Shown: positions 26,923 to 49,368, counted from the stretch's first letter. The stretch: 64,000 bases of DNA from Alphaproteobacteria bacterium (GCA_964291285.2 OZ219787.1:96001-160000), one strand, 5' to 3'. The notes: generated by a model not told the origin, from the letters alone. Numbers and translations are program-made.

Positions 26923-27446
26923 GGTCGTGTACCCATAAGGGGTTTCTTCTTCAGCGGAGCTGTGATTCAAGCTCCCAACATCAGGGAGCGAGGACATGGG
27001 CCGGTACGATCTGACGGACTTCGAATGGCGGGTGATCAAGCCGTTGCTGCCGAACAAGCCCCGTGGGGTGCCGCGGGTTGACGACCGGCGGGTGTTGAAC
27101 GGCATTCTGTGGGTGCTTCGCGCGGGGGCGCCGTGGCGAGACCTGCCGGAGCACTACGGGCCTTATACGACCTGCTACAACCGGTTCAACCGCTGGCGCA
27201 AGAAGGGCATCTGGGATCAGTTGATGGATGCGGTGGTGGAGGCTCACGACGGCAATGTGCAGATGATCGACAGTTCGAGCGTCCGGGTTCACCAGCATGC
27301 GGCGGGATCAAAAAAGGGGGTCCGGATCGTTGCATGGGCCGTTCCCGTGGCGGACTGACCACGAAGATCCACGCCGTGTCGGACGTGAGCGGCCTGCCGG
27401 TCCGCTATGACCTCAGCCCCGGCCAGGCGCACGACACCACGGCCGC
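26923..27446 (+). mobile_element. IS5 family (IS427 group), left half
   Basis: IR GGTCGTGTACCCATAA; orfA 26996-27358; AAAAAAGGGGG slip site; orfB GRSRGGLTTKIH..GQAHDTTAA then break. Confidence 0.92.
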
Positions 27447-27562
27447 ACCTGTGGGTGCTAACTATCTGACATAGCGTCGTTTTTTCTCCCGAAATGCAGC
27501 GGTCGGGGAAGCGGGTCGCAAGGGCCCGTTCCCCGGCTGCAACCGGAGCCGGGAGAAACGCA

Positions 27563-28687
27563 ATGGCGAAGACTACCCTCACCGAGGCGCGCGTGAAGGC
27601 GCTCAAGCCCCGCAGGTCCGTCCGCGAGGTCCGCGACGGCAGGCTGAGGGGGTTCGGCGTCCGTGTGTCGCCCTCGGGCCGCAAGCAGTTCTTCATCCAC
27701 TGCCAGCATCGCGGCGCGCGTATCTGGAAGATCGTCGGCGACGCCGGGTCGATGAGCGTCACGGACGCGCGGGCGGCGGCTGCGGAGATGCTTGCCGCCA
27801 TCAGGCGCGGCGGGGAGGCGCCGCCTGCGCCGGACGAGACGCTCTTCGAGGCCGTCGCCGAAACCGTGTTCGAGCGCCATGAGCGCCTCTGGAAAGCCGG
27901 AACGCTCGCTGTCAACCGCAGCTATCTGCGCAACCGGCTTCTGCCGCATTTCGCCGGGCGTCCGGTTGCCGCCATCGACCGGCAGGAGGTAAGGAACTGG
28001 TTCGCCCGCCTGCGCGCGGTGCCGGTGGCGGCGGACCGGTCGATGCCGGTGCTGTCCGTCATCATGAGGGAGGCGGAGGCCATGGGCCTGCGCCCGGAGG
28101 GGTCCAACCCCTGCCGGGGCATCAGGCGCTACCGCCGCAAGGGCCGCGAGCGGTTCCTCTGCGACGAGGAAATCCACCGCCTGTCCGCGCGGCTCAAGGC
28201 GCATGAGGCCCGCTGGCCGCAGCATGTCGCCGTCATTCGCCTGCTGCTGCTGACCGGCTGCCGCAAGGGCGAGATCCTCACCCTGCAATGGTCCGACTGC
28301 CGCGAAGGCCGCCTCTTTCTCCGCGACTCCAAGACGGGGCCCCGGACGGTCTGGCTCTCCGAACCGGCCCGGGCCGTTCTCGACGGCCTTGAGCGGAAAG
28401 GCCGCCATGTGTTCCCGGCCCCGGATAGCGGGCGAGCCCGGAGCGGAAGCTGGCTGGACCACTTCTGGCGCAGGGTCCGCGCCGAGGCGGACCTGGAGGA
28501 CGCCCGCCTTCACGATTTGCGCCATACGCATGCGAGCCTTGCCCTCCGGCAGGGCGAGACCGTGCTCGCCATCGGCCGGCTGCTCGGCCACCGCAGGCCG
28601 GAAACCACGCTGAAATATACCCATGTCGCCGACGCCATGGTGCAGGACGCAGCCGAGACCGTCGGCGCCGCGCTGGAGGCAGACTGA
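27563..28687 (+). CDS. Tyrosine recombinase A (arm-binding type)
   Basis: RDGRLRGFGVRV; TGCRKGE, DSKTG, HDLRH, LGH, TLKY. Confidence 0.93.
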   Translation: MAKTTLTEARVKALKPRRSVREVRDGRLRGFGVRVSPSGRKQFFIHCQHRGARIWKIVGDAGSMSVTDARAAAAEMLAAIRRGGEAPPAPDETLFEAVAETVFERHERLWKAGTLAVNRSYLRNRLLPHFAGRPVAAIDRQEVRNWFARLRAVPVAADRSMPVLSVIMREAEAMGLRPEGSNPCRGIRRYRRKGRERFLCDEEIHRLSARLKAHEARWPQHVAVIRLLLLTGCRKGEILTLQWSDCREGRLFLRDSKTGPRTVWLSEPARAVLDGLERKGRHVFPAPDSGRARSGSWLDHFWRRVRAEADLEDARLHDLRHTHASLALRQGETVLAIGRLLGHRRPETTLKYTHVADAMVQDAAETVGAALEAD

Positions 28688-29850
28688 TGGCGGGCCGGGA
28701 ACGCATGAAGCTGACCGACGCCGCCGTCGCCCGGCTTCGCCCCCGCGAGCGGGAATATACGGTCCGGGACACGCGCATCGCCGGTCTCGGGGTCCGGGTG
28801 CGGCCCACCGGCGGGCGCAGCTGGGTGCTGCTGCTCGACAGGGACGGGCGCACGAAACGCGTTTCGCTCGGCCCGGTTGGCGTGAAGAGCGCCGCGGATG
28901 TGCGCCGGGAGGCTCTCGAACGCCAGGCGGCCCCGCAGCCGGAGAAGACTGCCAGACCGCCCGGCGCGGTCCCGCTGTTCCGGGATTTCGTCGCCGGCCC
29001 GTGGAAGGAGGCCCATTTCAACCGCTGCAAGCCGTCGGGCCAGCAAACCGCGTCCGGGATACTCCGGCGACAATTGCTTCCGGCATTCGGCCCGAAGCCG
29101 CTCGACCGCATTGCGCCGGGCCATGTCCGGCAGTGGTTCGACCGCTACAGCCGGACCGCACCCGGCGGCGCCAACCGCGCCCTCGACATCCTGCGGCAGA
29201 TCATGACCTTCGCCGCCGCCTGCGGCCACATCGAAGTCAATCCGGCCAGGGGCACAAGAAGGAACCGCCGCCCGGCACTCAAACGGTTCCTGTCCCGCGA
29301 GGAACTCGCGCGCCTGCACGGTGTTCTGGATGCACAGGCCCGAAGCCGCGACAGGCAGCAGGCCGACATCATCCGGCTGCTGCTGTTCACCGGTTGCCGC
29401 AGAGGCGAGATCACGGGCCTGCGATGGTCCGAGGTCCGCGAGGACATGCTGGCCCTCGCGGAGAGCAAGACGGGGCCGAGGACGGTCCCGCTCGGCAGAC
29501 AGGCCAGGACCATTCTCTACCGGCAGCCGCGCACGGGCAGCGCGTTCGTGTTTCCCTCGCCGCGCGACCCCGCCCGCCCGCGCAGCCCCGACCTGCCGCT
29601 CTGGTATCGGGTTCGCAAGGAAGCCGGCATTGAAGACGTTCGCCTTCATGACCTGCGCCATACCATGGCCAGCCATGCGGTGATGAACGGCGTGCCCGTC
29701 CCGGTCGTCTCCCGCCTGCTCGGCCATTCCAATGTGCGCATGACGCTGCGCTACGCTCATCTCGCCGACCGCGACATCGAAGCCGCCGCGGAACGCGTCG
29801 GGCAGGCGATGGCGCGGGCCATGAGGGGCGGCCCGATAAAGCCCCGGTGA
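28687..29850 (+). CDS. Tyrosine recombinase B, coupled to A
   Basis: TGATG overlap; TGCRRGE, ESKTG, HDLRH, LGH, TLRY. Confidence 0.93.
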   Translation: MAGRERMKLTDAAVARLRPREREYTVRDTRIAGLGVRVRPTGGRSWVLLLDRDGRTKRVSLGPVGVKSAADVRREALERQAAPQPEKTARPPGAVPLFRDFVAGPWKEAHFNRCKPSGQQTASGILRRQLLPAFGPKPLDRIAPGHVRQWFDRYSRTAPGGANRALDILRQIMTFAAACGHIEVNPARGTRRNRRPALKRFLSREELARLHGVLDAQARSRDRQQADIIRLLLFTGCRRGEITGLRWSEVREDMLALAESKTGPRTVPLGRQARTILYRQPRTGSAFVFPSPRDPARPRSPDLPLWYRVRKEAGIEDVRLHDLRHTMASHAVMNGVPVPVVSRLLGHSNVRMTLRYAHLADRDIEAAAERVGQAMARAMRGGPIKPR

Positions 29851-29929
29851 CGGGCCGCCCGTCCCCGGCCTCCCGTGGCCCGCCCGGCCTTCGTCATGAC
29901 CCGTGGGCGCAGCCTTCCGGACGCCGCCG

Positions 29930-32591
29930 CCTGCCAGCGCGCCTGAGGGTGACCCCGGCCTCGTGCGCCGCCCTGCCTGCCCCGTTGCCGTTCGCGGCCT
30001 CGCCGCCGGCAGGAACTGTCACGGCGCCGGCCCCATGTTCGACCGTGCGGGGTCCGCTTCCAGGCGGGCGGCGAGCCTGTCGGCGCGCGGCTCCCCAGAT
30101 CGCGCAGGACGGCGATCACGACCGGCGCGACATCCGGATGACGCAAGGCGCAGCGTCCGAGCGCCACGATCGCCTCGTCATCGCCGATCGCGCCCAGCGC
30201 CTCGACGATCCCGTCCGAGGGCGCGGCGGCGAGTTCGGCAGTCAGCATATCCCGGCCCGAAGCATCGCCCCGACGCGCCAGCGCCATCGCCGCTCCCCGG
30301 CGGATCGACGGTTCCCGGTCGGACAGCCCCTCCCGCAGCCGGGACGCCGGCACGCCCGCCCCGGACGCGAGGTCGAAGGCCGCCGTGCGCACTCCCGGAT
30401 CGTCATGGTCGAGGAACCCGGCAACGAATGCGGCCGGCAGGACCAACCCCGCCCTGGCGGCGGATTGCAACGCAACCGGCAGCAATGAAGCCGGCAGGCC
30501 CGGCGAAAGGACGATCCGCTTCAACGCGGCGTGCGCCCCGCTATCCTCCAGCCGCGCCAGGGTTTCCAGCACGGCGCACTGTTCCCGCAGCGGCCGATTG
30601 ATGCCGAAGCCGCGGAGCCGGCACCACAGACCCTCCAGCGCCGGAACCGCCGCCTGCAACGACCGCGCGACGACCTCCGCGCAGAGCGCGTCAACCTAAA
30701 TCCGGCATTTGAGGATGGCGTGGCCTTGCCGAATCCCTTGTAGTCTGCGGGTATGAGCGGCTTTTCAGGGGCCGAAGAGGCTCACCCTGTGGGTGATTAT
30801 CCTGGCGCTGTGCGGGATGTCGCCCGAGCGTTCGTGAAGGTGGACACCTTCGGCGGCGCGGTTCATGTGGAATGGGACCCTGATGCGGCGGTGACGCCGC
30901 TGGGGCATCTGGCGTTTTTCGCGGAATAGCTGAAGGTGAGCGGTCGCTTTGACGCTTTGGTTGCGGACTGCCCGCTGCGGTACACGAGCCCGAACGCGCC
31001 GTCGAAGCGGGATGTCCTGGGGACGGTTCTTCTGTCGGTTCTGGCGGGGCAGTCCCGCTATGCGCACATCACGTCGCTGCGCGGCGACGGAGTGAACCCT
31101 GCGCTGCTGGGTATGGACAAGGTTGCGAGCGAGGATTCGGTGCGGCGCGGTCTGGAGCGGATCGGTGCGGATGTCGGCACATCGTGGCTTCAGGGCCATC
31201 TGGACGAGGTGGTCCGTCCGCTGCTGAGGGAGCCGTGGGTTCTGGACTGCGACACGACGATCAAGGCGCTTTACGGTCGTCAGGAGGGAGCGGTTGTGAG
31301 CTACAACCCGAAGAAGCCGGGCCGCCCCTCGCATGCCTGCCATGCGTTCCTGATGGCGGGCACGCGGCTTGTTCTGGATGTCGAGGTGGCGCCGGGCAAC
31401 CATCACCATTCGAGGCGCGCGGCGCCGTCCTTGTGGGCGTTTCTCGACCGTCTTGGGCGGGATCGCTGGCCGCGTCTGGTGCGGGGCGACAAGGACTGGG
31501 GCAGCGAGGCCAACATGTCGTCGTGCGAGGCTGCGGGTCCGGACTATCTGTTCAAGCTGCGCCTGACGAAGGGGGCGCGCCGGCTTGCCGAGCGGCTGAT
31601 GGCGCGGGACGGCCGGGAGGATGCGGGCCAGGGCTGGTCGGGGATCGGGGCCGATCTGCGTCTGCAGGGCTGGAGCCGGACGCGCCGGGTTGTGGTGCTG
31701 CGCCGGCGGCTTCCTGCGACGCTGGCGCTGACGCGTGGCGACAAGGCCCGGGGCGAGCTGTTCCGGACCGAGGCGCAGCCCGGCACCGGGGTGTGGGAGT
31801 TCGCGGTGCTGGCGACCTCGCTGGACCTGGAGATACGCTCGCTGGCCCGGCTCTACCGCGACCGGGCGGACGCGGAGAACGGCTTCGACGAGTTGAAGAA
31901 CCAGTGGGGTTGGGGCGGCTTCACCACGCGCGACCTGACGCGCTGCCGGCACATGGCCCGGCTGGTCGCGCTCATCTACAACTGGTGGAGCCTGTTCGTG
32001 CGCCTCGCCGACCCCGACCATCACCGCGAGGCGATCACCAGCCGGCCGCTGCTCCTGCACGGGGTTGCCCGCCAGACCCACCACGCCGGCCAGACCCGGC
32101 TGACGGTGACCTCCCATCACGGGCGTCGCAAGACGGTGATGGCGGCGCTGCGCCGGATCGCCGGCTTCTTCCGGTCGCTGATGCAAACTGCGGAGCAGTT
32201 GAGCGCCGGGGATCGCTGGCGCCGCATCCTCGCCGAGGCGCTCAGGAAATACCTCCATGGCCGCGAACCGGGGCGTCAACCCTGGCTGCCGCCACCCAGG
32301 GTCGCGACCGCGTGCTGAAATCCACGCCCAAATCCGACCGTTCACACTACCCCGAGACAGCGATCAAGCCCGTCAACTGCCGGATTTAGGGTCAATATCC
32401 GCTGGCCCCGCATCTGCAAGCCGTCCGGTCAGCTCGTTGTCGCAAAGCGACGACGGCGCAGGGGCCGCAGGCCGGATCAAGTGCCCCGACCGGCTGCGGA
32501 CATCAGCCCGCCTGCATCCGTCGAACAGGTCCGGTTGACGGTCCGCCCCGGGCCGTTCCGGAGGGAAAGGATCTGGTGTCCGGGCGGACAT
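29930..32591 (-). pseudogene. HEAT-repeat protein interrupted by IS1380
   Basis: LDHDDPGVRTAA, LSDREPSIRRGAAMAL, EALGAIGDDEAI; frame ADID|ALCAEVV restored on IS removal; additional frameshift near 30090; 3' end approximate. Confidence 0.75.
30695..32390 (+). mobile_element. IS1380-like element A, copy 1 (1696 bp); transposase 30753-32318 has premature TAG at 30927
   Basis: IR CCTAAATCCGGCA; GTCAA duplication; LDCDTT, RGD, RADAENGFDELK. Confidence 0.92.
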
Positions 32592-32642: not shown

Positions 32643-32680
32643 CGAGAAATTTGCGCTGTGGGGTTTTTCCGGTCGGATGG
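32643..32680. repeat. 38-bp exact direct repeat, copy 1
   Basis: CGAGAAATTTGCGCTGTGGGGTTTTTCCGGTCGGATGG, also at 39074-39111. Confidence 0.9.
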
Positions 32681-32852
32681 GACGTTGGGTCCGGTTGGTG
32701 ATGTTGTTTGTTCCGGCGTTCGAGGCGGTCGCCGCGGTTGCTTTTCGAACTTGAGCGGCCCAGCCCGGCAGCATCGCCGGCCTTCGGTCGCGGGTGTCCG
32801 TATGCCGGGGTCCGGCGGGTTGGGTCAGCGTTGTCGGCAGCCGGCTGAGGGG

Positions 32853-34331
32853 TCAGCCGGTATCGAGGTATGGCGCCGGGCCGACCAGGGAGCGCCTGCG
32901 TGCGACGCGTCCGGCGCGGGCCTGTGCAAGCGCCATGGCCATCATGACCGCCAGGGCCAGCCCGATGCGGGTCTTCATCTTCGCGCGACCGCGGATGTAG
33001 TGGGTCTCGAAGTTGAAGCTGCGGTCGAGGCGGGCGTTGATCCGCTCCATGGCCGTGCGCCGGTTGTATCCGCGCCGCCATGACGGGCTGCCCCAGGGCG
33101 TGGGCGTGAAGAGGCGCCGGTCATGGCTGTCGAGATCGACGCGCAGGATGCGGCCGTATTCGCCGGACTTCACCCCACCCGCCCGATGGCAGGCCCGGCG
33201 TCCCTTGCACTCGAAGCCGAAGGCGGCTGCGGGGCAGCGGTATTCGAGCGTGCCGCAGACGCCGCGCCCGGCCTCGAACCCCTGGAAGGCCATGGCGCGG
33301 ACCTCGCCGGTCTGCGGGCACACGCAGGACACCCGGCCGCGTTCGTCATGAACGATGACGTCGGCGCGTCCGGGGAACAGCGGTCGCGTGATCGGCCGGG
33401 CCGGGTCATGGCCCGGCTCCTTCTTCTCGACCCGCCACATCAGGCGCGTGTCGATCAGCGGGCGGATATGCCACCTGTCCCACAGCCGCGCCTTCAGGCG
33501 GGCGTTGTCGAGACCGCGGTCGGCGCTGAAGGTGGCGCAGCGCCCGGCCATCTCCGGCGCCCCGGCGAACAACTCCTCCACCATCCCGGACAGCGCCCCG
33601 GGTTCCGATGCCGACGCCCGCGTCACCTCGAAGGCCACAGGAACCTCGTGGTCCGTGTCGGCGATCAGGTGAAGCCCGTAGCCGAACCACGACTTCACCT
33701 TCTTCCACACCGCGCCGGTCTTCGCGTTCACCCCGCCCGTCTCGTGCCTGCCCCAGTCCGCATCGGGGTCCGAGGTCTGCCCCCTGGCCCCGGCAACCCG
33801 GCCCGTCGAGTGGCTCGCCACCGCCTTGCCGTCATACCCGGGATGGCGACCGAAGTCCGGCAACTCCTCGAACAGCGAGGCGCGCAGACGCCCGATCATC
33901 CCCGACACAAGGCCGCGCTCGTCCTCAAGGCGCACCACGCGCCCCAGGAACCGCGAGAAGTTCCAGGCGCCCGGCACCGTCGAGCGCAACGGCGCCGGAC
34001 GCCTCACCACCCGCCCCGCGCAAAGCGCCACCACCGGCGCACCCTGCAAGGGCAGCGCCTCGAAACCGCAAATCTCCAGAAGCGCCGGGTTGCGGCCCAG
34101 CTCCCGCAGAAGAGACTGCATCGAGGCATGCTGGAACACGATCCCCGCGATCAGAGCCCGCCACATCGCCCGCACCGGGTAGTCGTTGCGACCCCGGCCT
34201 CGACCCGCCTCAAGCGCCGCCACAACCTCCTCGTCGGGAAGCGTGTCGAGCACCACACGCAACCGCGCAAGGTCCGCAAGGCCTTCCACAGACCACCACG
34301 AAAAGGCTGACTTCTCCGCTGTCGCCATCAT
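32853..34331 (-). mobile_element. DDE transposase, IS5/IS1182-like (ends about 32751 and 34588)
   Basis: GRNDYPVRAM N-terminus, YDGK, SDPDADWG, FGYGLH, SADRG, YNRRTAMERIN. Confidence 0.85.
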
Positions 34332-34592
34332 GTTCTTCCAATCGTCTGGACACGTTGTAGGGGAACAGGGCCCAAGCCCGATGGCGACACCTTCTACTCA
34401 GTCCCGCGCCTCAACGCGACGCGCCCGAAAACCAGCCCGCGCACGGCCATGGGGTGGAAATCCACAAAACCCTTCCCGCCAAGCCGCAAAAACCCCCGAA
34501 ATCAGCCATACTGACGGGGTAAGAAAAATTCAGACCCTCCGCAATGCCTTGCTCAGAAAGCACTTACAAACAGCGCACACGCCTCAAAGGAT

Positions 34593-37098
34593 CAGACTTC
34601 CTGACCTCGTGACGATGTTTGTTGCGGGCGGCGTTCTGGGAACTTTTTGAGTTCGGTTCATTTTTCGTCTGTTTCGGCTGATTTTCGCTGGCTGCCGTGT
34701 CCAGGTTCGGGTATTTTAATTTGACACTGGATACGAGATTTCAACCATGTCGATTACCCTTCCCCTGAGCCCTCCGGAGGCGGTTCCGATCGGCAGCAGT
34801 TGTTTCGCCATTCTGATTTCGGACGACAGCTTCACCTACTTCTCCAACCTCGTTCCCTTTGACAGCCACGCCGCCGATGACCGCGCGGCCATGCTGTTGC
34901 GGATCGGCCGCCTGGCTGCGATCAGCGCGGTCTCGCGGCAGGATCTGGCCGACGCTTTCGGTGTCTCGCGTGCAACGGTCCAGCGCGCACGACGGCGCTA
35001 CCTGGCCGAGGGCGAAGCGGAGTTTCTGAAGCCCCGGCGCGGTCGGGGACCTTCGGTGTTCACGCCGGAGCTGGCGGAGAAAGCGACGGCGTTGCTGGAA
35101 GGGGGCCTGAGCGGCTCTGCGGTGGCCCGAGTTCTCGGCGTGTCAGCGCCGTCGGTCAACAAGTGGCGGCGGCAGGGGGTGATCGGCAACGCGGAGGCGT
35201 GTCGGGAGCGCGGCAGCGCGGCAGTGGCGGTGCCGCCTGACGCGGGTGGGGCGCCCGAGGGCAGTGTCGATGACGAGAGTGCCGGTGCCGCCGGGCCGGC
35301 GACGGCAGCGGGGCTGGAGGCGCAGACGGATCGCAGCGCGCGCGACCGGCGGGACCGGCAGGCGCCGATGGGGCGCGCGACTTGCGATGTCCGGGCTCGG
35401 GTGTTGGCCAGCTGCGGGCAGGCGGGACCGGTCGAACCGCAGTTCACCGCCGCCGCCCGCGGCGTGCGCTTTGGCGGCGTTCTCGCCGCCCTGCCGGCCC
35501 TGCTGAAGGAAGGCCTGCTCTGCGAGACCGGCCTCCTGCCGTTGCTGTCGAAGGGCTACTACGGCCTGCCCACGATCCTGCTCTTCCTGGCCTTCATGAC
35601 CCTGGCGCGGGTGCGCAACCCCGAGAGCCTGCGCTACCAGGCACCGGGCGAATGGGGTGCGGTTCTCGGTCTCGACCGCTGCCCCGAGGTCAAGACGCTA
35701 CGGCGCAAGATCGGGCTCATGGCCAACGACGAAGCCAGCGTGCAGGCGTGGCAGCTCGCTCTTGCGAGACGCTGGCAGGAGGAGGAGCCCGAGCTCTGGG
35801 CGACGCTGGCCGTTGACGGGCACGTCAAGGTCTACGCCGGCCGCAAGGGGCGCCTGCCCAAACACTTCGTCTCGCGCGAGAAGCTGTGCCTGCCGGCGAG
35901 CACCAGCTACTGGATCAACGCCTTGGGCGGCAAGCCCCTGCTGTGCCTGCACAAGCCGCTGGACCCGAAGATGGTCGCCGCGATCGAATCCGACGTGGTG
36001 CCGGCGTTGCAGGCGCTCGGGATCGTCGACGCCGGGGCAGCGGACCTGACCGCCGGGCAGCCCGGCCAGCCCGTGCTCACACTGGTCTTCGACCGCGAGG
36101 GCTGGAGCCCGGAGCTGTTTCGCCGGCTGGCCAGGCGCGGCATTGCCTGCCTGACCTGGCACAAGAACTTCAGGGGCGGGGACTGGCCGGCCGAGGACTT
36201 CAGTGCGATGATCGTTCCCATTCACGGACCCGCGGCGAACGCCAGCGCCACCATGCTGCTGGCCGAGAAGCCGGTGACGTTGAAGAACGGCTTCAGGGTG
36301 CGCCAGATCCGCCGCCTGCTCGACAACGGCCGTCAGGTTCCGCTGGTCACCACCGATCCGCACAAGCCGGTGGCGGAGGCCGCAGGCGCCTTGTTCTCGC
36401 GCTGGTCGCAGGAAAACTTCTTCAAATACATGCGCGACGAGTTCAATCTCGACGCCCTGCCGACCCACGAGATCGAGCCTCTCGCTGCCGATACCATGGT
36501 CGTCAGCCCGCTGCGGCGGGCCTACGACAAGGCAATCCGCCGCCTCGACCACCAGCTTGGCCGCCTGCGCAACCGCATCGCCGACGCCGCCCACAGGAAG
36601 CAGCCGACGGGCGAACTCAAGAGGGAACTCAGGGACCTCGAGGGCGGCCGTGAGATTGTCAGATCCAGCCGCAGGGAGGTGCCCACGCACTGCCGGGCCG
36701 GCGACCTCGACGAAGCCGGACAGCTCAATGCCTTGCCCTCACGCGAGCGCCTCCTACTCGACATCATCCGCATGATCGCCTACCGCGCTGAAACCCGCTT
36801 GATGCTTCCCGTCATGCAGGCGCAGGGCCACAAGCCCCACCCACGGAAACTGCTTCAGGCACTCTTCACCGCCGATGCCGACATCCTGCCGGACCCTGCC
36901 AACGGCGTCCTGCGGGTCCGCATTCTCGGCCTCGCAAATGACGCCTGCGACCGCCAGATCAAGCCTCTTCTGGCCGAACTCAACGCCACCGAAACGCACT
37001 TCCCCGGCAACCGTATGCGCATGGTCTACGAGGTCGGCATAACCCCAAAATCCGCGCGCACCGGTGCCAAACAAAATTAGCAGAGGTCAGGAAGTCTG
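34593..37098 (+). mobile_element. 2506-bp IS with 777-aa transposase (CDS 34747-37080), copy 2
   Basis: Same IRs and protein as copy 1; AGGAT duplication. Confidence 0.92.
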
Positions 37099-39111: not shown

Positions 39112-39443
39112 AGGGGACAGGCTGTTGATTCCGCGCAGGAAATCCCCTTCCTGCGCGTTGCCCCACCTTCGCGGCCCTTCCTGTCACCGGTGTTAGTGAC
39201 GGTGAGCGCGTCGCGTGTGCGCTGGTCGATTGCAGCCCGAACGTGCCGGTGTGGCCATGGCCGGGGCGCTTTCCAGCTACCCGTCACCCGTGCCGCCGGC
39301 CTGCCGCCCGACGCCGGGAACACCGCCTTCCCCGCTCCGCGCCGGCAGGAGGGAAGGTCTGGCCGTGAGCGGGGCGGCGGTCGGCGCTTCGGAGGGCGGG
39401 GCGCTGCCGCCGGGTTCCACCACGGCACGATGGAGACGGCAGC

Positions 39444-39776
39444 ATGACGGCAGCAAGGATGGCGATGCCCGGCAATACGGCGAGCACGTTCCTGGTCCAC
39501 TATTTCGGCGGCGGCCTCGACGGCGACGACCGCTTCGTGGTCGAGCGGTTCCGCGCCCTGGCCTGCGGCGACATTCGTCCGGTCCGGGACGGCGAGGAGA
39601 ACGCGAAGGGGCGTCGCAAGGTCAGGCGCACCGTGGTCTCGCGCAAGGAAGCCGAGGCGATGCGCCCGGACCGCACCGAGATCATCGTGTGCACCGGCCT
39701 TCGCACCCGCGGCGGGAAACAGGCTTGGGGTTCGGTTGCGGCGGGCCTCCTGTGCGACCGCAAGCAGCGCGGCTGA
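39444..39776 (+). CDS. Hypothetical protein, copy 2
   Basis: Near-identical to 16940-17272. Confidence 0.65.
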   Translation: MTAARMAMPGNTASTFLVHYFGGGLDGDDRFVVERFRALACGDIRPVRDGEENAKGRRKVRRTVVSRKEAEAMRPDRTEIIVCTGLRTRGGKQAWGSVAAGLLCDRKQRG

Positions 39777-39863
39777 GCGCTTTCCCGAGGGATGTCCCGC
39801 CGGCCCACCCGGGTCGGCCGGGCGTCCCTCTTCCGTTTTCCCCACGGCAAGGAGAACGCTCCC

Positions 39864-40841: not shown

Positions 40842-41009
40842 CATGCTGTCCCGGGCGGCGATGGCGGCGCTCGCCTGGCCGCGATCCTCCGCGCCGTCCC
40901 TGTGTCGTGGAGAGGAGTGAAGCGCCTGCCGGGCGAGTGTCCGGCAGGGCGGAGGAGAGGAACTCCCCGCGCCGATGCCGGATCGGACACCGGCAGAGGA
41001 GTTCCCGCC

Positions 41010-41216
41010 ATGTTCCATCCCGATACACCCCTCGACCTTCCGCTCGGCTGCGACCTGCTCGCCGAACTCGGCGTCGACCGTCGCACCGTCCGCGAGATCG
41101 CCGAGGACGAGCGTGCCATCCGCTGTCCCGACCGGGGCGCGGCCTGTCCGGTGCACGGCTTCGCGAGCCTCTTCCCGGAACCGGCGTCGTCGTTCTCTCC
41201 GGGCGGTCAGGGGTAG
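41010..41216 (+). CDS. Small hypothetical protein, copy 2
   Basis: Matches 18573-18779. Confidence 0.6.
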   Translation: MFHPDTPLDLPLGCDLLAELGVDRRTVREIAEDERAIRCPDRGAACPVHGFASLFPEPASSFSPGGQG

Positions 41217-41320
41217 AGGAGGGCCTGAAGAGATTGAACGGGCGGGGGTTCGGGAGAGTGACCCCGGCCCCGGTCGTTCGCAACCCATCGTCATCAACGC
41301 GAACCTGAAGGAGTATCGCA

Positions 41321-42937
41321 ATGAGCTTCGGATTGAACAAGGCGCAGATCATCGGCCGCCTCGGCGCGGACGTCACCATCAACCACCTGCAGAACGGCGG
41401 CCGCGTGGCCAATCTGAGCGTTGCCACCGACGAGAGCTACATCGACCGGAACGGCAGCGGCGAGCGGATCGACAGGACCGAGTGGCACCGGGTCGTGATA
41501 CCAGCGGTTGAGGGTTGAGACTCATTGAGGGGATTCCCAAGGTTATCGAGTTCTGGCTCAATAGCGATTCTGCGATTGGAGGGTCGTTATGAGGGCAGCA
41601 ATCCCCTTGAGGGAGGATTTTGATGCGGCGCAGTTGCGCGGCTTGGCGCAGCGGAGCCGGTATGGTTCGCAGAACCGTCGCCTTCTTGCGCTTGCGGTGA
41701 TTTACGACGGTTACCGTCGTTCGGATGCGGCGCGTTTTGCGGGGGTGGGCTTGCAGATCATCCGGGACTGGGTTCTTCGCTTCAACGCGGAAGGCCCGGA
41801 GGGATTGAAGGATCGCAAGGCCTCAGGTCCGCCGCGCAAGTTGAACGGGGAGCAGCGCGCGGCGCTGGCGGCGGTTGTGGAGAGCGGTCCGGACCCGGCG
41901 ATCCACGGCGTGGTGCGGTGGCGGCGCTGCGACCTGGCGGCATGGCTCAGGGAGCAGTTCGGCATCTCGTTGGCGGAGACGACGGTCGGGCGGGAGTTGC
42001 GCCGGATGGGCTACGCCAGGCTGTCTGCGCGCCCGCGCCACCATGCCCGGGACGAAGCCGCGCTGGCAGGGTTCAAAAAAACTTCCCCGACCGCCTGAAG
42101 GAGATCCGCGCTGCACTCGGCGACGGCGTCGAGGTCGAAGTCTGGTGGCAGGACGAGGCGCGCGTCGGGCAGAAGAACAGGATCACCCGGCGATGGGCGA
42201 AACGCGGCACCCGACCGTCAGCGCCCAAGGACCAGAGAGCCATCCCGGCCTACATCTTCGGCGCCATATGCCCGCAGAAGGGCAAGGCCGCCGGCCTCGT
42301 CATGCCCCACGCCAACACGGAGGCACTCAACGCCCACCTCGCCGAGGTCGCCCTCACCGTTGAACCCGGAGCCCATGCCCTCGTCATGCTCGACCGGGCC
42401 GGATGGCACACATCCCCGGCCCTCAAAGTCCCCGACAACATAACCCTGATGCCGCTCCCGCCCCGGTCCCCCGAGCTCAATCCCGTCGAGAATGTCTGGC
42501 AGTTCATGCGCGAAAATTGGCTCTCGAACCGCGTCTTCCAGAACTACGACGACATACTCGATCACTGCTGCCAGGCCTGGAACAATCTCGTCTCACAACC
42601 AGAACGCATCGCCTCCATCGGAACCCGAAAATGGGCCAATGGGTTCTGAACTATGCCCGCTGGTATGACCTTCCAGGACGGGCTGATCGACATGCTCGCC
42701 AGGCACGCCACGAAGGGCCGGCTGGTCTACGTCGACGGCAAGCTCCAGACCCGGCGCTGGTCGAAGCCGGGCGAGGACGGCGACCGCTTCTCGACCGAGA
42801 TCCTGCTGGTCCCCGGCGGGCGCGTCCAGTTCCTCGACAAGGCGAACGGCAACGCCGCGCAGCCCGGCCCGGACGCGGCGGGCGGCGCCGCGCCGGCCGG
42901 CGGCGACCCGATGGACGGGGACCATATCCCGTTCCAG
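41321..42937 (+). pseudogene. ssb: ssb copy 2, interrupted by IS630, stop codon lost
   Basis: TEWHRVV|TFQDGL split; TAG changed to CAG after DHIPF. Confidence 0.92.
41499..42665 (+). mobile_element. IS630-family element with frameshifted transposase
   Basis: IR TACCAGCGG/CCGCTGGTA; A7 slip site near 42075; WQDEARVG, LDRAGWH, SPELNPVE; TGA on both flanks. Confidence 0.93.
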
Positions 42938-43118
42938 AGCTTCCCGTTCTTCCCTCCCCACAGGGTCGGCGCCTCGCGCGTCGGCCCTTTCTTCATGCAG
43001 GCAGGTTCGAGTCTCGCCGCGGCGCATACGGAGTGGGAGCGAGGCTGGAAAGCGAGTGAACCGCGCGAGGAGGAGAGCGAGCCCGCTCGCGCACCCGTCA
43101 CGCTACCCGGAGAACCCG

Positions 43119-43346
43119 ATGAGCACCATCTCCTTCCGCCGCATCGCCCCCGACGAATCCCGCATCTACCGGGACGGCGACCATGTCGGCGACGTCCACG
43201 CCTTCGACGACAGCATCCGGCCGGGGCACAGGGTGTTCGCCATACACCTCGACGAAGACCCGCGCGGCCCCGTCTATCTCCACGACCGCGCCCGCATCCG
43301 CGAGGTCGCCGGGCGCCTGGTGCTCTCCCATCCCCTGTGGGGTTGA
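43119..43346 (+). CDS. Small hypothetical protein, copy 2
   Basis: Matches 19497-19724. Confidence 0.65.
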   Translation: MSTISFRRIAPDESRIYRDGDHVGDVHAFDDSIRPGHRVFAIHLDEDPRGPVYLHDRARIREVAGRLVLSHPLWG

Positions 43347-43428
43347 CGCAAGGGCGGGCAACGGCGCCTCCGGCGCCGTGCCGGCCGAACCGCCGATGGG
43401 GTCCGTGCAGGGCGAGAGAAATACGCCA

Positions 43429-43676
43429 CCCCGCTGTGATGTCCAATCGTGTCACACGTGCTCGCGACAGCAACCCCTGCGGGGTCCTCCGGTCGCTCCG
43501 CTCCCTGCGGCCCGGGCAAGAAGCTCTACGGGCGGACCGTGAAAGTCGACGACCGTGAAGATCGCAAGACGATCTTCCGCACCACTCGCCGACTTTCCGC
43601 ACCACTCCGCCCAGGAGCTTCTACGCCCGGGTGCTTCTGCTGCGCGCGCGTGCCCCGACAGGACATCACAACGGGG
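43429..43676. promoter_or_regulatory. Frpo-like fold-back, copy 2
   Basis: Same nested arms as 19814-20061. Confidence 0.7.
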
Positions 43677-43711
43677 ATCGGCCCCGAACGTGAAACCGAA
43701 AGGAAAACGAC

Positions 43712-44629
43712 ATGACCTTCGATATAAAGACCGCTGGACAGTCCGCAACCGCAACCGTCTGCGAACACGCCGCCCTCTACGGCGCCACCCCCGAGCGCGA
43801 CGAGCTCGACCCCCGCGAGGTCTGGGACGAGGACGATGCGCTGACCGCAATCGGCGAGGCCTTCCGCATCCTCGCCGAAGGCGCCTGCCCCGACGGCACC
43901 CAGCTCGCCGACGAACGCGAGAGCCTGCTGTGGGGCTTCGTCAACATGCTCCACGCCCAGAGCCGCCGCCTCGACCGCAGCGTCGACCGGCTCAGCCCGG
44001 ACCTGCGCGACTTCCAGCGCGAGCAGGACGGCACCGAGATCAAGTCCCGCGACCTGGAGCTCGTCACCGACCGCGCGCAGAACCTCGGAGACCGGCGCGA
44101 CGCCTTCGAGAAGATGCGCAACACCGCCGCGCACGCCTACCGCGAAGAGACCGGCGACATGTGGCGGCCCCGGCACGGCAGCCACGCCAGCCAGACCGGC
44201 ACGCTCACCAGCGCCGCCATCGACGCCCGCGACTTCGCCCGTGCCCGCAAGGACCGCGCGACCATGGCGCACCTGCCGCAGGGCACCCTCGTCGCCATCG
44301 CCGGCGGAAAGGACATCGCCGACCCGGCCGCGGTGATCGCCAGGCTCGACCAGGCCCGCGCCAGGTATGCCGACCTCGTCCTCGTCCACGGCGGCGGTCC
44401 CGGCGTCGAGAAGATCGCGGCGCGCTGGGCCGAGCGCAACGGCGTCCACCAGGTCGTCTGCAAGCCCGACTGGGACCGCCACGGTCGCGCCGCACCCTTC
44501 CGCCGCAACGACGAACTGCTCAACCTCCTGCCCAGGGGCGTCATCGCCTTCCCCGGCTCCGGCATCACCGAAAACCTCGTCGACAAGGCGAAGCAGCTCG
44601 GCATCCCGGTGATGAAGGTCGCAGCCTGA
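43712..44629 (+). CDS. DUF2493 (YspA/SLOG-like) protein, copy 2
   Basis: Same motifs; N-terminal two-thirds diverged from copy 1. Confidence 0.85.
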   Translation: MTFDIKTAGQSATATVCEHAALYGATPERDELDPREVWDEDDALTAIGEAFRILAEGACPDGTQLADERESLLWGFVNMLHAQSRRLDRSVDRLSPDLRDFQREQDGTEIKSRDLELVTDRAQNLGDRRDAFEKMRNTAAHAYREETGDMWRPRHGSHASQTGTLTSAAIDARDFARARKDRATMAHLPQGTLVAIAGGKDIADPAAVIARLDQARARYADLVLVHGGGPGVEKIAARWAERNGVHQVVCKPDWDRHGRAAPFRRNDELLNLLPRGVIAFPGSGITENLVDKAKQLGIPVMKVAA

Positions 44630-45267
44630 CCGCAACGCATCGCGGGCCGTGTCGTCGCTCCGGCGGCGGCACGGTCCGTTTCCTCTTTCGCACATTGATG
44701 ACGCGGCAACGCCAACCTCGCGCGCTTCGCGCCGCACTCGTGCTCCGGCTTCACCGATCGCGCTTGCGTTCCGCGTCCGCGTCACGCGCCGCTGCACCAT
44801 GCTTCGCCCGGGTGCATCGCCGTCCGCGCCGATCCCGGCGCACCGCCCGCCGCACTTCCGCCGGCGTGACTGTCGACGGCACTGCCGGCGTTGCCGCCCG
44901 TCCGCTCGGCACGGTGCTTCGCACCAGTGCCCGCGCTCGCGCCGGCGAGGCCGTCCGCTCACACGCCGCGGCGGCTCCCCTCCGCCGGGTTCCCCGGCGT
45001 CGATTTCCCCATCGTGAATGCTGCACCGTTCGGCTCTGTCTCTACGGCGGAGCCGCAGATTCAATACACCCGACGCATCCTTGATGCAGGGAGCGAGGCC
45101 CGGCCGGCCTGCATCGGTCGGCAATTTTCCGTTGCGTGACAGACGGTTGGGCCTGGCCCGGCCTCTGACCGCGGTTTCGCGCGCGGGTCGCGTTGTCCGT
45201 TCAGGAGCGCCGTTCCGTTCCCCCGGGACGGACGGCGCCCGAGGGAACAGACAACGGAGACACGCCC

Positions 45268-46404
45268 ATGCGCATCCATGCCCCCGTCAACGAGCGGACG
45301 GTCCGCCGCACCTTCAGGGAGAAGAAACCCGGACGATACGGCCTGACCGTCATCGACAGGGACCTGCCCGCCTTCGGCTTCACCGTCGCCGGGAACGGAA
45401 CGAAGACCTTCTTCGTCCGGACCTCACGCCAGTTCGGCGCGCCCAGGGCGATCCTCGGCACGACCGACGACATGACCGCCGCCGAGGCGAGGGAGAAGGC
45501 CATTGCCGCCATCGCCGAAGCCAAAGCCGACCGCGAGACCGGGCCGCTGTTCGCCGACTTCGCGGCCGACTTCATGCGCCGCCAGGGGCGGCGCTGGAAA
45601 CCCTCCACGAGGAAGGCCAACGCCCATCTGATCGAGCGCCGCCTCGTGCCCTTCTTCAGCGCGATGCCCGTCGCGAAGATCGACCGCGCCGATGTGCGGC
45701 GCTGGTTCGATTCCCTCAGCGGAACCCCCGGCAGCGCCAACCGGACCCTGCCGGTGCTCTCGGTGATGATGCGCCAGGCGGAGCTATGGGACCTTCGCCC
45801 GCAGGGCTCCAACCCCTGTCGCAACATGCGGCGCTACAGGACGGCGCCGCGCGAGCGGTTCCTGTCCCTGGACGAGTTGAAGCGCCTCGGCTTCGTCCTC
45901 GACCATGCCGAGGACCGGCAGGCCGCCGCCGCCATCCGCCTGCTGCTGTTCACCGGCGCCCGGTCGTCCGAGATCGCCGGCCTGCAATGGGACTGGATAC
46001 GGGACACCCGCGCGGTGTTGCCGGACTCCAAGACCGGACCGAAGGCGCTCCAGCTTCCCCCGCCCGCGCGGGCCGTCCTGAATGGCCTGCCGCGCGAGGG
46101 ACGCTTCGTCTTCCCGAACGGGAAGGGCGACGGCCCGATGACCGACCTCGGCCTGCGCTGGCAGAAGCTGCGCGGTCTCGCCGGGCTGGACGATGTGCGC
46201 ATCCACGACTGCCGGCATACCTTCGCCTCCCATGCCGTGATGAGCGGCCTCGACCTCTACACCGTCGGCCGCCTGCTCGGCCATGCCGATACCGCCTCCA
46301 CCGAACGCTACGCCCATCTCGCCGACGAGCATGTCCGCGAGGCGGCCGGGCGCATCTCCGGCATCGTCCACGAGGCCATGACCGGGAAGGAAAGCGGGCG
46401 ATGA
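45268..46404 (+). CDS. Tyrosine recombinase C
   Basis: TGARSSE, DSKTG, HDCRH, LGH, TERY; GGAG RBS. Confidence 0.92.
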   Translation: MRIHAPVNERTVRRTFREKKPGRYGLTVIDRDLPAFGFTVAGNGTKTFFVRTSRQFGAPRAILGTTDDMTAAEAREKAIAAIAEAKADRETGPLFADFAADFMRRQGRRWKPSTRKANAHLIERRLVPFFSAMPVAKIDRADVRRWFDSLSGTPGSANRTLPVLSVMMRQAELWDLRPQGSNPCRNMRRYRTAPRERFLSLDELKRLGFVLDHAEDRQAAAAIRLLLFTGARSSEIAGLQWDWIRDTRAVLPDSKTGPKALQLPPPARAVLNGLPREGRFVFPNGKGDGPMTDLGLRWQKLRGLAGLDDVRIHDCRHTFASHAVMSGLDLYTVGRLLGHADTASTERYAHLADEHVREAAGRISGIVHEAMTGKESGR

Positions 46405-47494
46405 GCGGCCGCAGGCATCGTGTCCGGCTCACCGTGAAGGCCGTCGCCGCCGCGAAGCCGGCGGAACGGGAATACACCCTGTGGGACAATCTGCTGGCGC
46501 ATTTCGGGGTCAGGGTGCAGCCCTCCGGCGTCCGGTCCTGGATCGTCCAGACCCGCGTCCGGGGACGCATGCGCAAGATCACCCTCGGGCGCTTCCCCGA
46601 ACTGCCTCTCGACGCGGCGCGCCGGGAAGGCGCGGCCGTGCTCGCCCGCCTGTGGGGCGGCGAGGACGTGACGCCGCCGCGCAAGGGGAAGGCGCCGCTG
46701 TTCCGGGACTTCGCCGCCCGTTACCGCTCGCGGCGGAAACACCGCTGGAAGCCGTCCTCGCTCGAGACCTTCGACATCTACCTGAAGAACCGCCTGATGC
46801 CGCATTTCGGCAGGCTCCGGCTCGACGCCATCGACCATGCGCGGGTCTCGGCATGGTTCGACGCCGCCAGCGCGGACAGGCCCGGCGCCGCCAACCGCGC
46901 CTTCGAGATACTCCGCGCCATGCTCGGGACGGCCCGGCAGTGGGGCGACATCGGCGAGCATGTCCCCGACGCCTGCGCCAACATCGTGAAGAACCCCCGC
47001 AAGCCTGTCGCGCGCTATCTCAGCCGCGAAGAGCTGGAGCGTCTCGGCGCGGTGCTCGACCGCCACCGGGAACAGCATCCCTGGCCGGTGGCGGCCATCC
47101 GGCTGTTGACGCTCACCGGGGCGCGGCTCTCCGAAGTCATCAACCTCAGGTGGGACGAAATCGGAGAGCTGGGCGGAGACGGCGCGAGCGCGCGCATCGA
47201 AGACTCCAAGACCGGGCCGCAGACCGGGCCGCGCACCATCTGGCTGGGGCCGGAAGCGGCAAGGCTGATCGCGGAACTGCCGCGACCGGATGGCCGGGAG
47301 CGAGTGTTTCCCGACAACCTCACGACGGCAAGGCTCTATACTTTCTGGGTCGGCATACGCGACGAGGCGGGGCTTCCGGGTCTTCGCATCCACGACTGCC
47401 GCCACACCTGGGCCTCGCAGGGCGTCATGAACGGCGTCGGGCTCACCACCGTCGGGCGGCTGCTCGGACACCGCAAGCGGGAGAATACTGCCGC
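46401..47494 (+). pseudogene. Tyrosine recombinase D, 3' truncated before the catalytic Tyr
   Basis: ATGA overlap; TGARLSE, DSKTG, HDCRH, LGHRKRENTA then runs into the antisense of the RHH gene. Confidence 0.85.
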
Positions 47495-47944
47495 TCAGCC
47501 CAACAGCGGCGTCCCGTTCTCCATCCATTTGCGGAACTGCCGTTCGATCTCCGGGGCGTGGTCGGCGCCGAACGTCTCCGCCAGCAGCGGCCCGAGTTCG
47601 TCCTCCCGGCCCTGCCGGACCATGTCGCGCAGCACCGTCATGAGCAGCAGCTCCACCGATTGCCGGAGCCGTTCGATGGAACTCCCGCCCGGGCCCGCCG
47701 CCGCCAGGGTGCTGTCCGCCATGCGCGCGACCCGGTCGAACAGAAGCCGCTGCTCCGCCCCGGACAGGACGAGCGAAGGACCGGACAACGCCTCCGGGTC
47801 GAGCTCGACGCTCAGCCCGGCGGAAATCATGTGCCCGTTGATCGAAATGCCCCGCCGGTCCGCGATCTCCCGGCTTCGCTCCCAGTCCAGGTCGGAGCAC
47901 GAGATGGTCAGCCGCACCCGCGCGCCGGAACCGCGCGCCGTCAT
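47495..47944 (-). CDS. RHH-like protein 3 of trio
   Basis: VRLTISCSDLDWERSREIADRRGISI; homolog at 25482. Confidence 0.7.
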   Translation of the reverse strand: MTARGSGARVRLTISCSDLDWERSREIADRRGISINGHMISAGLSVELDPEALSGPSLVLSGAEQRLLFDRVARMADSTLAAAGPGGSSIERLRQSVELLLMTVLRDMVRQGREDELGPLLAETFGADHAPEIERQFRKWMENGTPLLG

Positions 47945-48270
47945 CGATCCGCCCATCCCGAAGGGCGCTCCCGAAGCGCGCGCTGGATGAACGCGATCGC
48001 GCCGAACAGCGACAGGTCCGTGCCGGGAAGCGCCTCGTGCAAGGCACGATGGACGGCGTCCATCCGCGCCACCCGCTCATGCAATGTCCGCTGTTCCTCC
48101 TCCGAGAGCACGAGCCGGGGCTCCTCGCGGGGCGCCCCGCCCGCATCCTCGTGCAGCGCGCAGGCTACCAGGAAGCGCGAGACCGGCATGCCCGCCGCCT
48201 CGGCCTTCTCCCTGATCGCCGCCTTTTCGACCACCGTGCAGCGCAGGGTGCGGCGAACCAGCCTTGCCAT
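47941..48270 (-). CDS. RHH-like protein 2 of trio (MobC-like N-terminus)
   Basis: TLRCTVVEKAAIREKAEAAGMPVSRFL. Confidence 0.75.
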   Translation of the reverse strand: MARLVRRTLRCTVVEKAAIREKAEAAGMPVSRFLVACALHEDAGGAPREEPRLVLSEEEQRTLHERVARMDAVHRALHEALPGTDLSLFGAIAFIQRALRERPSGWADR

Positions 48271-48277
48271 GACCGCC

Positions 48278-48661
48278 TCAGGGCTGCGGCGCGGGGCCGC
48301 CCTCCGGATCGGCGCTGACCGAGACCGCCTGCCAGCGCGCCGCCGCGCCGGGATCGGTCAGGCGGTCCAGGTCGCCCTCACGGGAGAGCCAGGCATCCAC
48401 GGCATCGCCGAGAGCGGCCCAGCGGTCCCCCAGGTCGAGATCCACCATGCGCTCCTGCTCCACCTTCGCCAGCACCAGCAGTTCGCGCACAGCGCGCCGC
48501 ATGACGACGGCCGGCACGGCCTCCGCCATGATGGCCCGGTGAACGATGTAGCGCGAGATTTCCATGCCCGCCTCGTCGGCAAGCTCCCTGATGCGCGCCC
48601 ACTCGTTCGCCGTCGCCATCACCGCATGCTGCGTGCGGCGCCCCCCCGGAGCCCGGCTCAT
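48278..48661 (-). CDS. RHH-like protein 1 of trio
   Basis: AVMATANEWARIRELADEAGMEISRYIVHRA. Confidence 0.75.
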   Translation of the reverse strand: MSRAPGGRRTQHAVMATANEWARIRELADEAGMEISRYIVHRAIMAEAVPAVVMRRAVRELLVLAKVEQERMVDLDLGDRWAALGDAVDAWLSREGDLDRLTDPGAAARWQAVSVSADPEGGPAPQP

Positions 48662-49042
48662 GACGACGCCCCCGGACCTGCCGCAACCATCAGAATTCCG
48701 TGCTTTACCGGCAAGCTTGCCTTCGTTTCTCCTATATCAATTATCATATTTATCCTCTCACAGGTTGATTAGGTGCATCACCACGATGGTCGTGGCTTTT
48801 TTCGTGCCAGAACTGCATTCATGCATAAGGCTACCCTCAATGCCCCCCGGAAACAATGCGTTGTCACTGTTTTACTTCCCCCAGTGCCACTACCGCGTTC
48901 AGGATCTTCCCGTAGGTCAGTCGGATTTCGTGCCAATGCCTCTTGCCATGCCCGGAAATATCCTGTATTGAAGCCCCCTTCATGGGAGGAAGGCGACCCC
49001 TGTCAGATAGTGCCCTAACTCGAAAAATCACGTTCGAGATTT

Positions 49043-49368
49043 ACACCACGGCCGCCGGTGCCATGCTGGCGACCCTGCCGCCCGACAGTTTCCTCATCGC
49101 CGACAAGGCCTGTGACGCCAAATGGATCCGTGACCTGATCGAGCAACACGATGCCGTCCCGATCATCCCCGACCGCGAAGGCGCGAAGACCAGGCACGCT
49201 TTCTCCAAACCCTTGTATAAATTGCGAAACCGGATCGAACGCGCCTTCAACAAACTCAAGCAGTTCCGCCGCATCGCCACCCGATACGAAAAGCTCGCCG
49301 CCAACTTCCTCGCCATGATCAAGATCGCTACTGTCAGGCTCTGGCTACGCGCTTATGAGTCCACGGCC
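49043..49368 (+). mobile_element. IS5 family (IS427 group), right half of the element starting at 26923
   Basis: TTAAGAML..ADKACD..RNRIERAFNKLKQFRRIATRYEK; IR TTATGAGTCCACGGCC then TA. Confidence 0.92.

Follow-up and report, generated by a model that had tools for sequence, protein, structure and literature searches.

This analysis concerns a 21.6-kb element (27447-49042) within a 64-kb stretch of alphaproteobacterial DNA, hereafter the window, which is C3:96001-160000 of a 6.1-Mb, five-contig genome (G000); all positions are those of the whole stretch. We consider it very probable that this interval is an integrated member of a family of transposon-like integrative elements driven by two coupled arm-type tyrosine integrases, IntA and IntB. 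The original prediction, made from the sequence of the window, was of a mobile two-integrase element distinct both from the RIT trios and from integrative and conjugative elements with a single integrase. That view is upheld by the precise ends, by the coupled pair, and by the organization of the 90 integrase-like genes of the genome, of which 76 lie in 38 tandem pairs, 14 are solitary and none belongs to a trio.

The element divides a host insertion sequence (IS) of the IS5 family, and a copy of the 13-mer ACACCACGGCCGC stands at each boundary. The features of the two boundaries are as follows.

26920-27446, + strand: left part of the host IS5-family element, with orfA (DUF4096, 26996-27358) and the N-terminal part of the DDE transposase gene orfB (27109-27446), by Pfam
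27434-27446, + strand: left copy of the 13-mer, consisting of the putative recombination core ACACCACGGC (27434-27443) and CGC (27444-27446), which is also the start of the element's CGCACC
27444-27562, + strand: left arm (attL, element side), delimited by nhmmer copies, conserved blocks, inverted repeats and fold
48933-49042, + strand: right arm (attR, element side), delimited by 14 genome copies
49043-49055, + strand: right copy of the 13-mer, consisting of the core ACACCACGGC and a CGC that belongs to the IS5 target
49043-49373, + strand: right part of the host IS5-family element (C-terminal part of the DDE orfB; Pfam DDE_Tnp_1 and DDE_Tnp_1_2), joined to the left part in intact copies

The window contains exactly two copies of the 13-mer (27434-27446 and 49043-49055), compared with a mean of 0.32 matches in shuffled sequence when one mismatch is allowed; two matches were reached in 3 of 100 shuffles. 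The Pfam matches in the two IS5 halves span 26996-27355 (DUF4096), 27109-27471 (N-terminal part of the DDE domain) and 48943-49368 (C-terminal part). Because at least seven uninterrupted IS5 paralogues in the genome hold the 13-mer only once, in the context ...GCGCACG-ACACCACGGCCGC-CGGTGCC..., deletion of 27447-49055 would restore the IS5. The Pfam halves and the intact paralogues together bear out the claim that an IS5 orfB is split at a 13-bp direct repeat and mended by removal of this segment. The IS5 part is present in 11 genome copies, and the same site is occupied in three of them, by two different variants of the element.

Both arms have internal symmetry. The left arm contains the palindrome GCACC-TGTG-GGTGC (27445-27458), GGTGCTAAC, the 11-mer ACTATCTGACA, a T-run and a 76-nt leader hairpin; the right arm contains the block CCTTCATGGGAGGAA, the inverted 11-mer TGTCAGATAGT (49001-49011), a hairpin (49019-49038) and the terminus ...GAGATTT. 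The 11-mer ACTATCTGACA lies at 27461-27471 on the plus strand and at 49001-49011 on the minus strand, at the predicted 14 and 31 bp from the repeats, with two matches in the window and none in 100 shuffles. The CTCGAA/TTCGAG hairpin anticipated at the right end is also present (49019-49024 with 49033-49038), though as a fold it is weak (z -2.1). The block CCTTCATGGGAGGAA (48975-48990), about 60 bp from the right terminus, is kept in 14 of 14 right ends of the window's type (type 1) and may be a protein-binding or promoter element. A small open reading frame (ORF) at the right end, orf39, was rejected as a gene, having only four codons in 9 of the 14 copies.

The genes thought to drive the element stand immediately inside its left arm.

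27563-28687, + strand: intA, arm-type tyrosine integrase of 374 amino acids; Pfam Arm-DNA-bind_3, Phage_int_M and Phage_integrase; catalytic R..HxxR..H..Y
28687-29850, + strand: intB, arm-type tyrosine integrase of 387 amino acids; Pfam Arm-DNA-bind_3 and Phage_integrase; 42% identical to IntA

The ATG of intA is 116 bp inside the left end, the intA stop and intB start overlap by 1 nt, and both products have the expected domains, in agreement with the prediction of a coupled pair beginning about 115 bp from that end. Arm-DNA-bind_3 and catalytic domains exceed the Pfam gathering scores in IntA, in IntB and in the IntC and IntD remnant of a second pair considered below; a central SAM-like/core-binding domain is present in all four as well, and by alignment R, HxxR, H and Y are all kept in IntA, IntB and IntC. 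The solved structures closest to IntA are those of the integrases 5c6k, 5dor and HP1 Int. In a quick tree, IntA-type and IntB-type genes form separate clades with three mirrored subclades (support of 99 for each clade in the Shimodaira-Hasegawa-like approximate likelihood ratio test, SH-aLRT), and in other genomes an IntB orthologue directly follows the IntA homologue at 49 of 52 loci, the three exceptions being truncated. Because of this pairing, the overlapping start and stop, and the mirrored clades, both integrases appear to be kept by selection. By analogy with XerC/XerD or with TnpA/TnpB of Tn554, both are probably needed, one per side or strand exchange.

The leader upstream of intA is predicted to fold into a three-tier hairpin of 76 nt (27483-27558; -51 kcal/mol, z -4.3), whose outer stem pairs TTTCTCCC with the Shine-Dalgarno sequence of intA, GGGAGAAA, in the 3' arm. 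Two divergent relatives have the same leader architecture with other inner-stem sequences (z -4.8 and -2.9). Across 38 left ends, RNAalifold detected no covariation in the leader, only invariant stems, the outer stem being invariant in all 38.

Profile searches with nhmmer recovered 27 left ends and 14 type-1 right ends in the genome, along with four right ends of a second type, in which ...CGTGTT is followed by ACACC. Ten elements are complete, with ends in the right order, and measure 8.2, 8.2, 10.1, 10.1, 11.0, 13.6, 13.6, 21.6 (the window copy), 33.2 and 36.3 kb. Their cargo varies; one 8.2-kb copy encodes a Slam-like protein and a porin. An alignment of the two 13.6-kb copies (C1:188395-201955 and C2:434364-447919) spans 13,584 bp and shows no mismatches and one gap; both copies sit at the core ACACCACGGC. 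Their flanks are unrelated, one copy lying in an IS5 at the same site as in the window and the other in a different repeat, which is direct evidence that the family has moved recently. The end sequences thus recur with integrase pairs, as the original prediction required, both in the 27 left ends of this genome and at 48 of 52 related loci elsewhere.

Comparison of the junctions reveals a simple target rule. All left junctions have the form flank-ACACC-N5-6-CGCACC-N3-4-GGTGCTAACTATCTGA, and at right junctions the terminal T is followed by ACACC or a one-base variant (14 of 14 type-1 and 4 of 4 type-2 ends). CGCACC, which does not vary among the 38 left ends aligned from other genomes, belongs to the element. 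The 13-bp length of the repeat in the window is then partly a matter of chance: the CGC that follows ACACCACGGC in the IS5 equals the left end of the element, and a shared stretch of 10 bp would suffice. For five targets the genome has paralogous sites that are empty, each with the core once: ACACCACGGC both in the IS5 and in another repeat, ACACCGCGCC in an IS5-like element of 1.94 kb, ACACCCCTGAA in a repeat with 26 copies, and ACACCCG(A/G)GAG in the X module, a multicopy segment described below. The ACACCGCGCC target bears four left and three right element junctions in other copies. In the ten complete elements the left and right cores are identical in six cases, differ by one base in three, and differ at 4 of 11 bases in one. 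The expectation that integration takes place at non-tRNA sites agrees with the targets, which are IS copies and other repeats, and with the outer flanks of 48 left-end motif loci in other genomes, which are of 41 distinct, non-tRNA-like kinds; these flanks were not scanned for tRNAs.

The repeat had been proposed to be either an att core or a long target duplication, and the junctions point to a third answer. It is not a constant att core, because ACACC alone is fixed. A true target-site duplication, produced by staggered cuts of the DDE type with a mere preference for ACACC, would account for a repeat whose length (10-11 bp) and sequence vary among copies. Nevertheless, the only transposases present are those of passenger IS copies, and the conserved genes are those of tyrosine recombinases. 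Almost every copy has ACACC at both of its ends, as do, on the left, 44 of 48 junctions in other genomes, and the same element variant stands at two unrelated loci that share all ten core bases. The one-base differences between left and right cores in three elements fit heteroduplex or later mutation rather than a copied gap. A staggered-cut duplication is for these reasons highly improbable, and the repeat is best read as a common recombination core of 10-11 bp, in which a fixed ACACC adjoins 5-6 variable bases that match or nearly match.

A mechanism consistent with this core can be outlined. The element would excise as a circle whose joined ends hold ACACC and the 5-6 variable bases, and the circle would integrate by conservative site-specific recombination at an ACACC next to a matching or near-matching run of 5-6 bases. 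A core of 10-11 bp would in this way come to stand on both sides without a staggered-cut duplication, and a landing at a near match could alter the variable part, which would set the next preferred sites. The window copy landed in ACACCACGGC of the IS5 transposase gene, later gained three or four IS copies, and also carries a fragment of another island with a dead pair, IntC-IntD'. A bolder formulation, which we offer tentatively and consider doubtful, is that the family represents an IS-like class of transposon built on two heterobivalent integrases, with a target choice that is partly written in the element: the 5-6 variable bases beside ACACC at the circle junction would select matching sites in the genome and be rewritten at each near-match landing. 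If such retargeting occurred, lineages could redirect themselves and burst to dozens of copies, including hits in IS genes and in each other.

The second integrase pair leads to a different conclusion from that of the original prediction, in which tandem pairs were the machinery of the element.

45066-47484, + strand: remnant of an IntC-IntD unit, with intC (45193-46404) intact and intD (46401-47484) truncated before ...RETTAIYAHL, which includes the catalytic tyrosine

The match to IntD ends at 47484, where ten other aligned copies continue into ...RETTAIYAHLDD, the segment that contains the catalytic tyrosine; this residue is absent from IntD of the window and present in the intact copy on C1. 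At 47484, IntD and the right-end module share only the microhomology GGGA.A, and the catalytic segment was lost through a microhomology deletion. The apparent 529-amino-acid ORF of IntD is extended by 165 codons that are antisense to orf153, a well-supported minus-strand gene of that module. The unit has a left boundary, ACACCCGACGC, that is constant in every copy, and it occurs at 11 other places in the genome (e.g. C1:52121, C3:1423806, C5:419511 and eight more), alone or beside an X module, with IntC 98-99.5% identical and with the ends of the 21.6-kb element at none of them.

It could be argued that a single element owns both tandem pairs, four recombinases in all with one pair per end, given that both pairs lie inside the same precise ends, that the four integrases are paralogous (36-43% identity), and that the X module and IntC-IntD are adjacent at several loci. 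This arrangement is extremely improbable when set against the 11 copies that lack the element's ends, the absence of the full IntC-IntD pair from the other nine complete elements, and an IntD that stops short of its catalytic tyrosine, its remainder being antisense read-through of orf153. Because of the copies elsewhere without these ends and the truncation, IntC-IntD is a broken passenger derived from a different, separately repeated unit. The claim of a second pair and a trio of ribbon-helix-helix (RHH) genes near the right end is thus correct for IntC and the RHH genes, but fails for IntD, which is cut at 47484. More generally, a second integrase pair within an island can be the debris of a nested element.

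A fourth family of tandem pairs was observed at C2:209006-211313, C3:1343315-1345622, C3:1478851-1481158 and C5:428100-430401, with products that share 37-38% identity with IntC. In the tree, each of its two genes has the other as nearest relative, and the family may therefore have arisen by an independent tandem duplication.

Between the IntD remnant and the right arm is a module of three paralogous RHH genes that read inward.

47495-48661, - strand: right-end module, comprising RHH2 (48278-48661), RHH1 (47941-48270) and orf153 (47495-47956)

RHH1 and RHH2 match a NikA-like Pfam family; orf153 has no family match, but it is a paralogue of the RHH genes and has a coding GC pattern. A divergent trio (33-46% identity) is present in the recently moved 13.6-kb element. 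The trio might act as an excision factor, a regulator or an accessory to an origin of transfer (oriT). The last of these roles would accord with a usual integrative mobilizable element (IME), in which an oriT close to the right end is marked by the RHH proteins, spread relies on the conjugative system of a helper and the high copy number is secondary. In addition to the NikA-like matches, RHH1 has an NCBIfam MobA/MbpA match, which is below cutoff, and a hairpin lies beside the right terminus. A Pfam scan found no relaxase in the 21.6-kb copy, the full trio is detectable in only three of seven type-1 complete elements (missing or partial in four), and multiplication within a genome needs no transfer. 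We regard the IME interpretation as rather unlikely, and it is compatible with an element driven by IntA-IntB rather than exclusive of it.

The family extends beyond this genome. Within the genus, 15 of the 16 other genomes have homologues of IntA (E<=1e-60), at 2-30 matches per genome; outside it, such homologues occur in none of eight genomes that represent other genera of the family and in two of 16 sampled from other families. The named records are metagenome-assembled entries labelled 'Alphaproteobacteria bacterium' and 'Defluviicoccus sp.' Three sequencing runs contain the related 8.2-kb element as contigs. Some of the runs with small portions of a related copy carry a sponge-metagenome label, which is no evidence of habitat. 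At 48 of 52 loci the left-end motif lies 60-160 bp upstream of the IntA homologue, and three of the other four are cut by contig ends. ACACC precedes GCACC by 4-7 nt exactly in 44 of these 48, with one mismatch in two and not at all in two.

A signature of the family was accordingly defined as (C)GCACC-N3-4-GGTNCTAAC....TGA about 110 bp upstream of intA, with intB directly downstream and ACACC 4-7 nt outside; it is found at 27434-29850 of the window, as 23 pattern matches in the same genome, and at 44 of 52 related loci. Among 401 genomes sampled evenly across the class, two have the left-end pattern, this genome (23 matches) and G323 (14 matches), and a reversed control gave none. G323 belongs to another family of the class and has an IntA (74%)/IntB (67%) pair with ACACC junctions (e.g. 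L103, L105 and L107); it represents a second burst, outside the genus. RHH homologues were detected at only 1 of 52 related loci. A search downstream for the left core gave 19 of 47 loci with at most one mismatch, which is mostly chance level, and only one (L089) is convincing.

Several observations weigh against the interpretation of 27447-49042 as an integrated copy of a mobile family. A profile built from 13 right ends found no right end at any of the 52 related loci (nhmmer), and the genome has no second full-length copy of the 21.6-kb element. This heavily loaded copy may no longer be mobile. The RHH trio is, as noted, incomplete in most type-1 elements. One of the 'complete' elements has cores that match at only 7 of 11 bases, and some end pairs may be recombinants between copies. 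Finally, the assembly is of the metagenome type, with 4.77% contamination and very many repeats, and its joins could be assembly errors.

The last two points relate to the possibility that the 21.6-kb interval is a chimera, in which recombination, or an assembly that ran across repeats, joined a left and a right end of different elements. Many ends are solo or inverted (27 left against 18 right), and the interior is a mosaic that includes one illegitimate junction (47484). On the other hand, the two ends flank one IS5 copy exactly, have identical cores and jointly restore the IS5, and later IS insertions together with a single deletion account for the rearrangements inside; a copy at C1:811109 lacks two of the IS elements. 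A chimeric origin is therefore very unlikely, and we favour a single element moved by IntA-IntB.

How does this element relate to known recombinase systems? Islands and IMEs with one integrase of the P4/P2 type (DUF4102) share with it the domain architecture, a direct repeat derived from the att core, and an integrase gene beside one end. They differ in that two coupled integrases are found here, that the target is ACACC and N5-6 in IS copies or ordinary genes rather than the 3' end of a tRNA gene, that there are dozens of copies per genome, and that the core is half fixed. With its pair of integrases and its IS and repeat targets, the element does not fit the classical description of a single-integrase tRNA island. 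XerC/XerD are the model of two paralogous tyrosine recombinases that share one site. Unlike them, IntA and IntB possess arm-binding domains and are encoded on the element that they move, and their NCBIfam scores are 39-76 bits (best 75.5 for XerC and 68 for XerD) against cutoffs of 335 and 330. The CTnDOT/NBU elements of Bacteroidota, which are conjugative or mobilizable and use a single integrase, have a short conserved motif next to a variable overlap in which heterology is tolerated. The likeness to ACACC and N5-6, and to the one-base core differences, is mechanistic only.

Among elements with several recombinases, Tn554 has two adjacent tyrosine recombinases, both said to be required, together with a small accessory protein, a site preference and a short footprint, according to PMC10214605 and PMC3414803. 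However, Tn554 combines one ordinary recombinase with a large one that lacks an arm-binding domain, whereas IntA and IntB are of equal size and arm-type, and the host phylum differs. The Tn554 set of TnpA, large TnpB and TnpC is not found here; no TnpC-like gene turned up, TnpC not having been searched for directly. Strand-biased circularizing integrative elements (SE) and GInt (PMC10214605), and likewise the GMT islands, have a left-end operon of several genes of the tyrosine-recombinase type with a small accessory gene, short imperfect inverted repeats, few selected targets and variable cargo. PMC10214605 places SE and GInt in Gamma- and Betaproteobacteria at 1-2 copies per replicon, and GInt 'not at all in Alphaproteobacteria'. 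SE and GInt encode a third protein with a recombinase fold (Tfp/GinC), located between the two integrases or next to them, whereas the 1-nt overlap of intA and intB leaves no room for another gene; the organization intA-tfp-intB or ginABC with srap/ginD is lacking, and the NCBIfam score for GmtZ is 24.6 against a cutoff of 600.

The RIT elements (PMC3414803) also consist of tyrosine recombinase genes arranged in tandem, which move as a group and are known from Alphaproteobacteria. They are trios of simple recombinases without arm-binding domains, and differ from the strict pairs found here, there being 38 pairs and no run of three consecutive genes among the 90. The same paper describes the BIM elements as one recombinase with an SMC-like protein, not as recombinase pairs. 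PMC8138268 was used in these comparisons as well, and PMC4502571 and a pipolin preprint proved unrelated. In the literature covered, which excludes subscription journals, no account was found of elements with arm-type integrases in tandem, nor of ACACC as a target.

The proteins themselves are ordinary arm-type integrases; what is unusual is that they are obligately paired, that the core is only half fixed and that the copy number is like that of an IS. In the usual picture an arm-type integrase acts alone and inserts its island a single time, at a tRNA gene, and the coupled pair here resembles a transposase, yielding dozens of copies per genome with 5-30 kb of cargo and a readable target rule of ACACC and a short match. 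If the variable part of the core guides the choice of site, the pair would be a natural, partly programmable integrase for large DNA, and would help to explain the reshuffling of surface-protein, RTX and defence cargo in sponge-associated Alphaproteobacteria.

The interior of the window copy between the IntA-IntB pair and the IntC-IntD remnant has the following features.

29757-30659, - strand: HEAT-repeat cargo ORF of 300 amino acids (Pfam HEAT_2), with codon-position GC consistent with coding; adjoins an IS insertion
30690-32395, + strand: IS4-like IS (transposase 30936-32318; Pfam DDE_Tnp_1_4 and DDE_Tnp_1), more than 35 genome copies at 97-99%
32644-34586, - strand: IS5-like IS (transposase 32853-34331; Pfam DUF772 and DDE_Tnp_1), about 25 copies
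34588-37100, + strand: Transposase_29 IS encoding a 777-amino-acid protein (34747-37080; Pfam PF21804, E 3.5e-98), about 10 copies at 99.8-100%
37353-38249 and 38297-39004, - strand: two genes for RTX calcium-binding repeat proteins (Pfam HemolysinCabind, E 1e-40 to 1e-41)
39146-45066, + strand: X module, a captured fragment of another, single-integrase island, with SSB-like, YspA/SLOG (43712-44629) and unknown ORFs (Pfam)
41498-42669: IS630 copy that splits the X module, about 15 genome copies

The HEAT-repeat ORF is common to the copies at C1:811109 and C5:343424, and the RTX genes are shared at 82-89% with copies on C1 and C2. The claim that no DDE transposase lies at either end holds for the termini, but four IS copies are present inside the element. 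The internal IS5-like IS holds ACACCGCGCC (33707-33716), a target of the element family in other copies. A sister copy at C1:811109, 99.6% identical, lacks the IS4-like and the Transposase_29 IS, and these two therefore arrived after the element had formed. The size of 21.6 kb is due to the four IS copies and to the captured fragment of another island. All four IS types are multicopy in this genome, whose IS load is extreme.

The X module is present in about 20 genome copies, the full ones having a solitary integrase of 410 amino acids about 2 kb upstream. This integrase has seven genome copies, each near an X module, and one is in the window itself, where 14592-21459 contains the integrase (28% identical to IntB) followed by a second X-module copy. 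Position 39146 was dismissed as an element boundary, being merely where the query changes. A derivation of C1:811109 from a window-like element by inversion was not supported either, the predicted right half of the IS5 not being found beside C1:787417.

Lastly, the site ACACCGGTGACAGG (39181-39193, minus strand) is empty in the window and is filled in the sister copy (C1:802219) by the right end of another member of the family, GAGATTT being followed there by ACACCGGAGACAGG. Elements of the family thus insert into each other.

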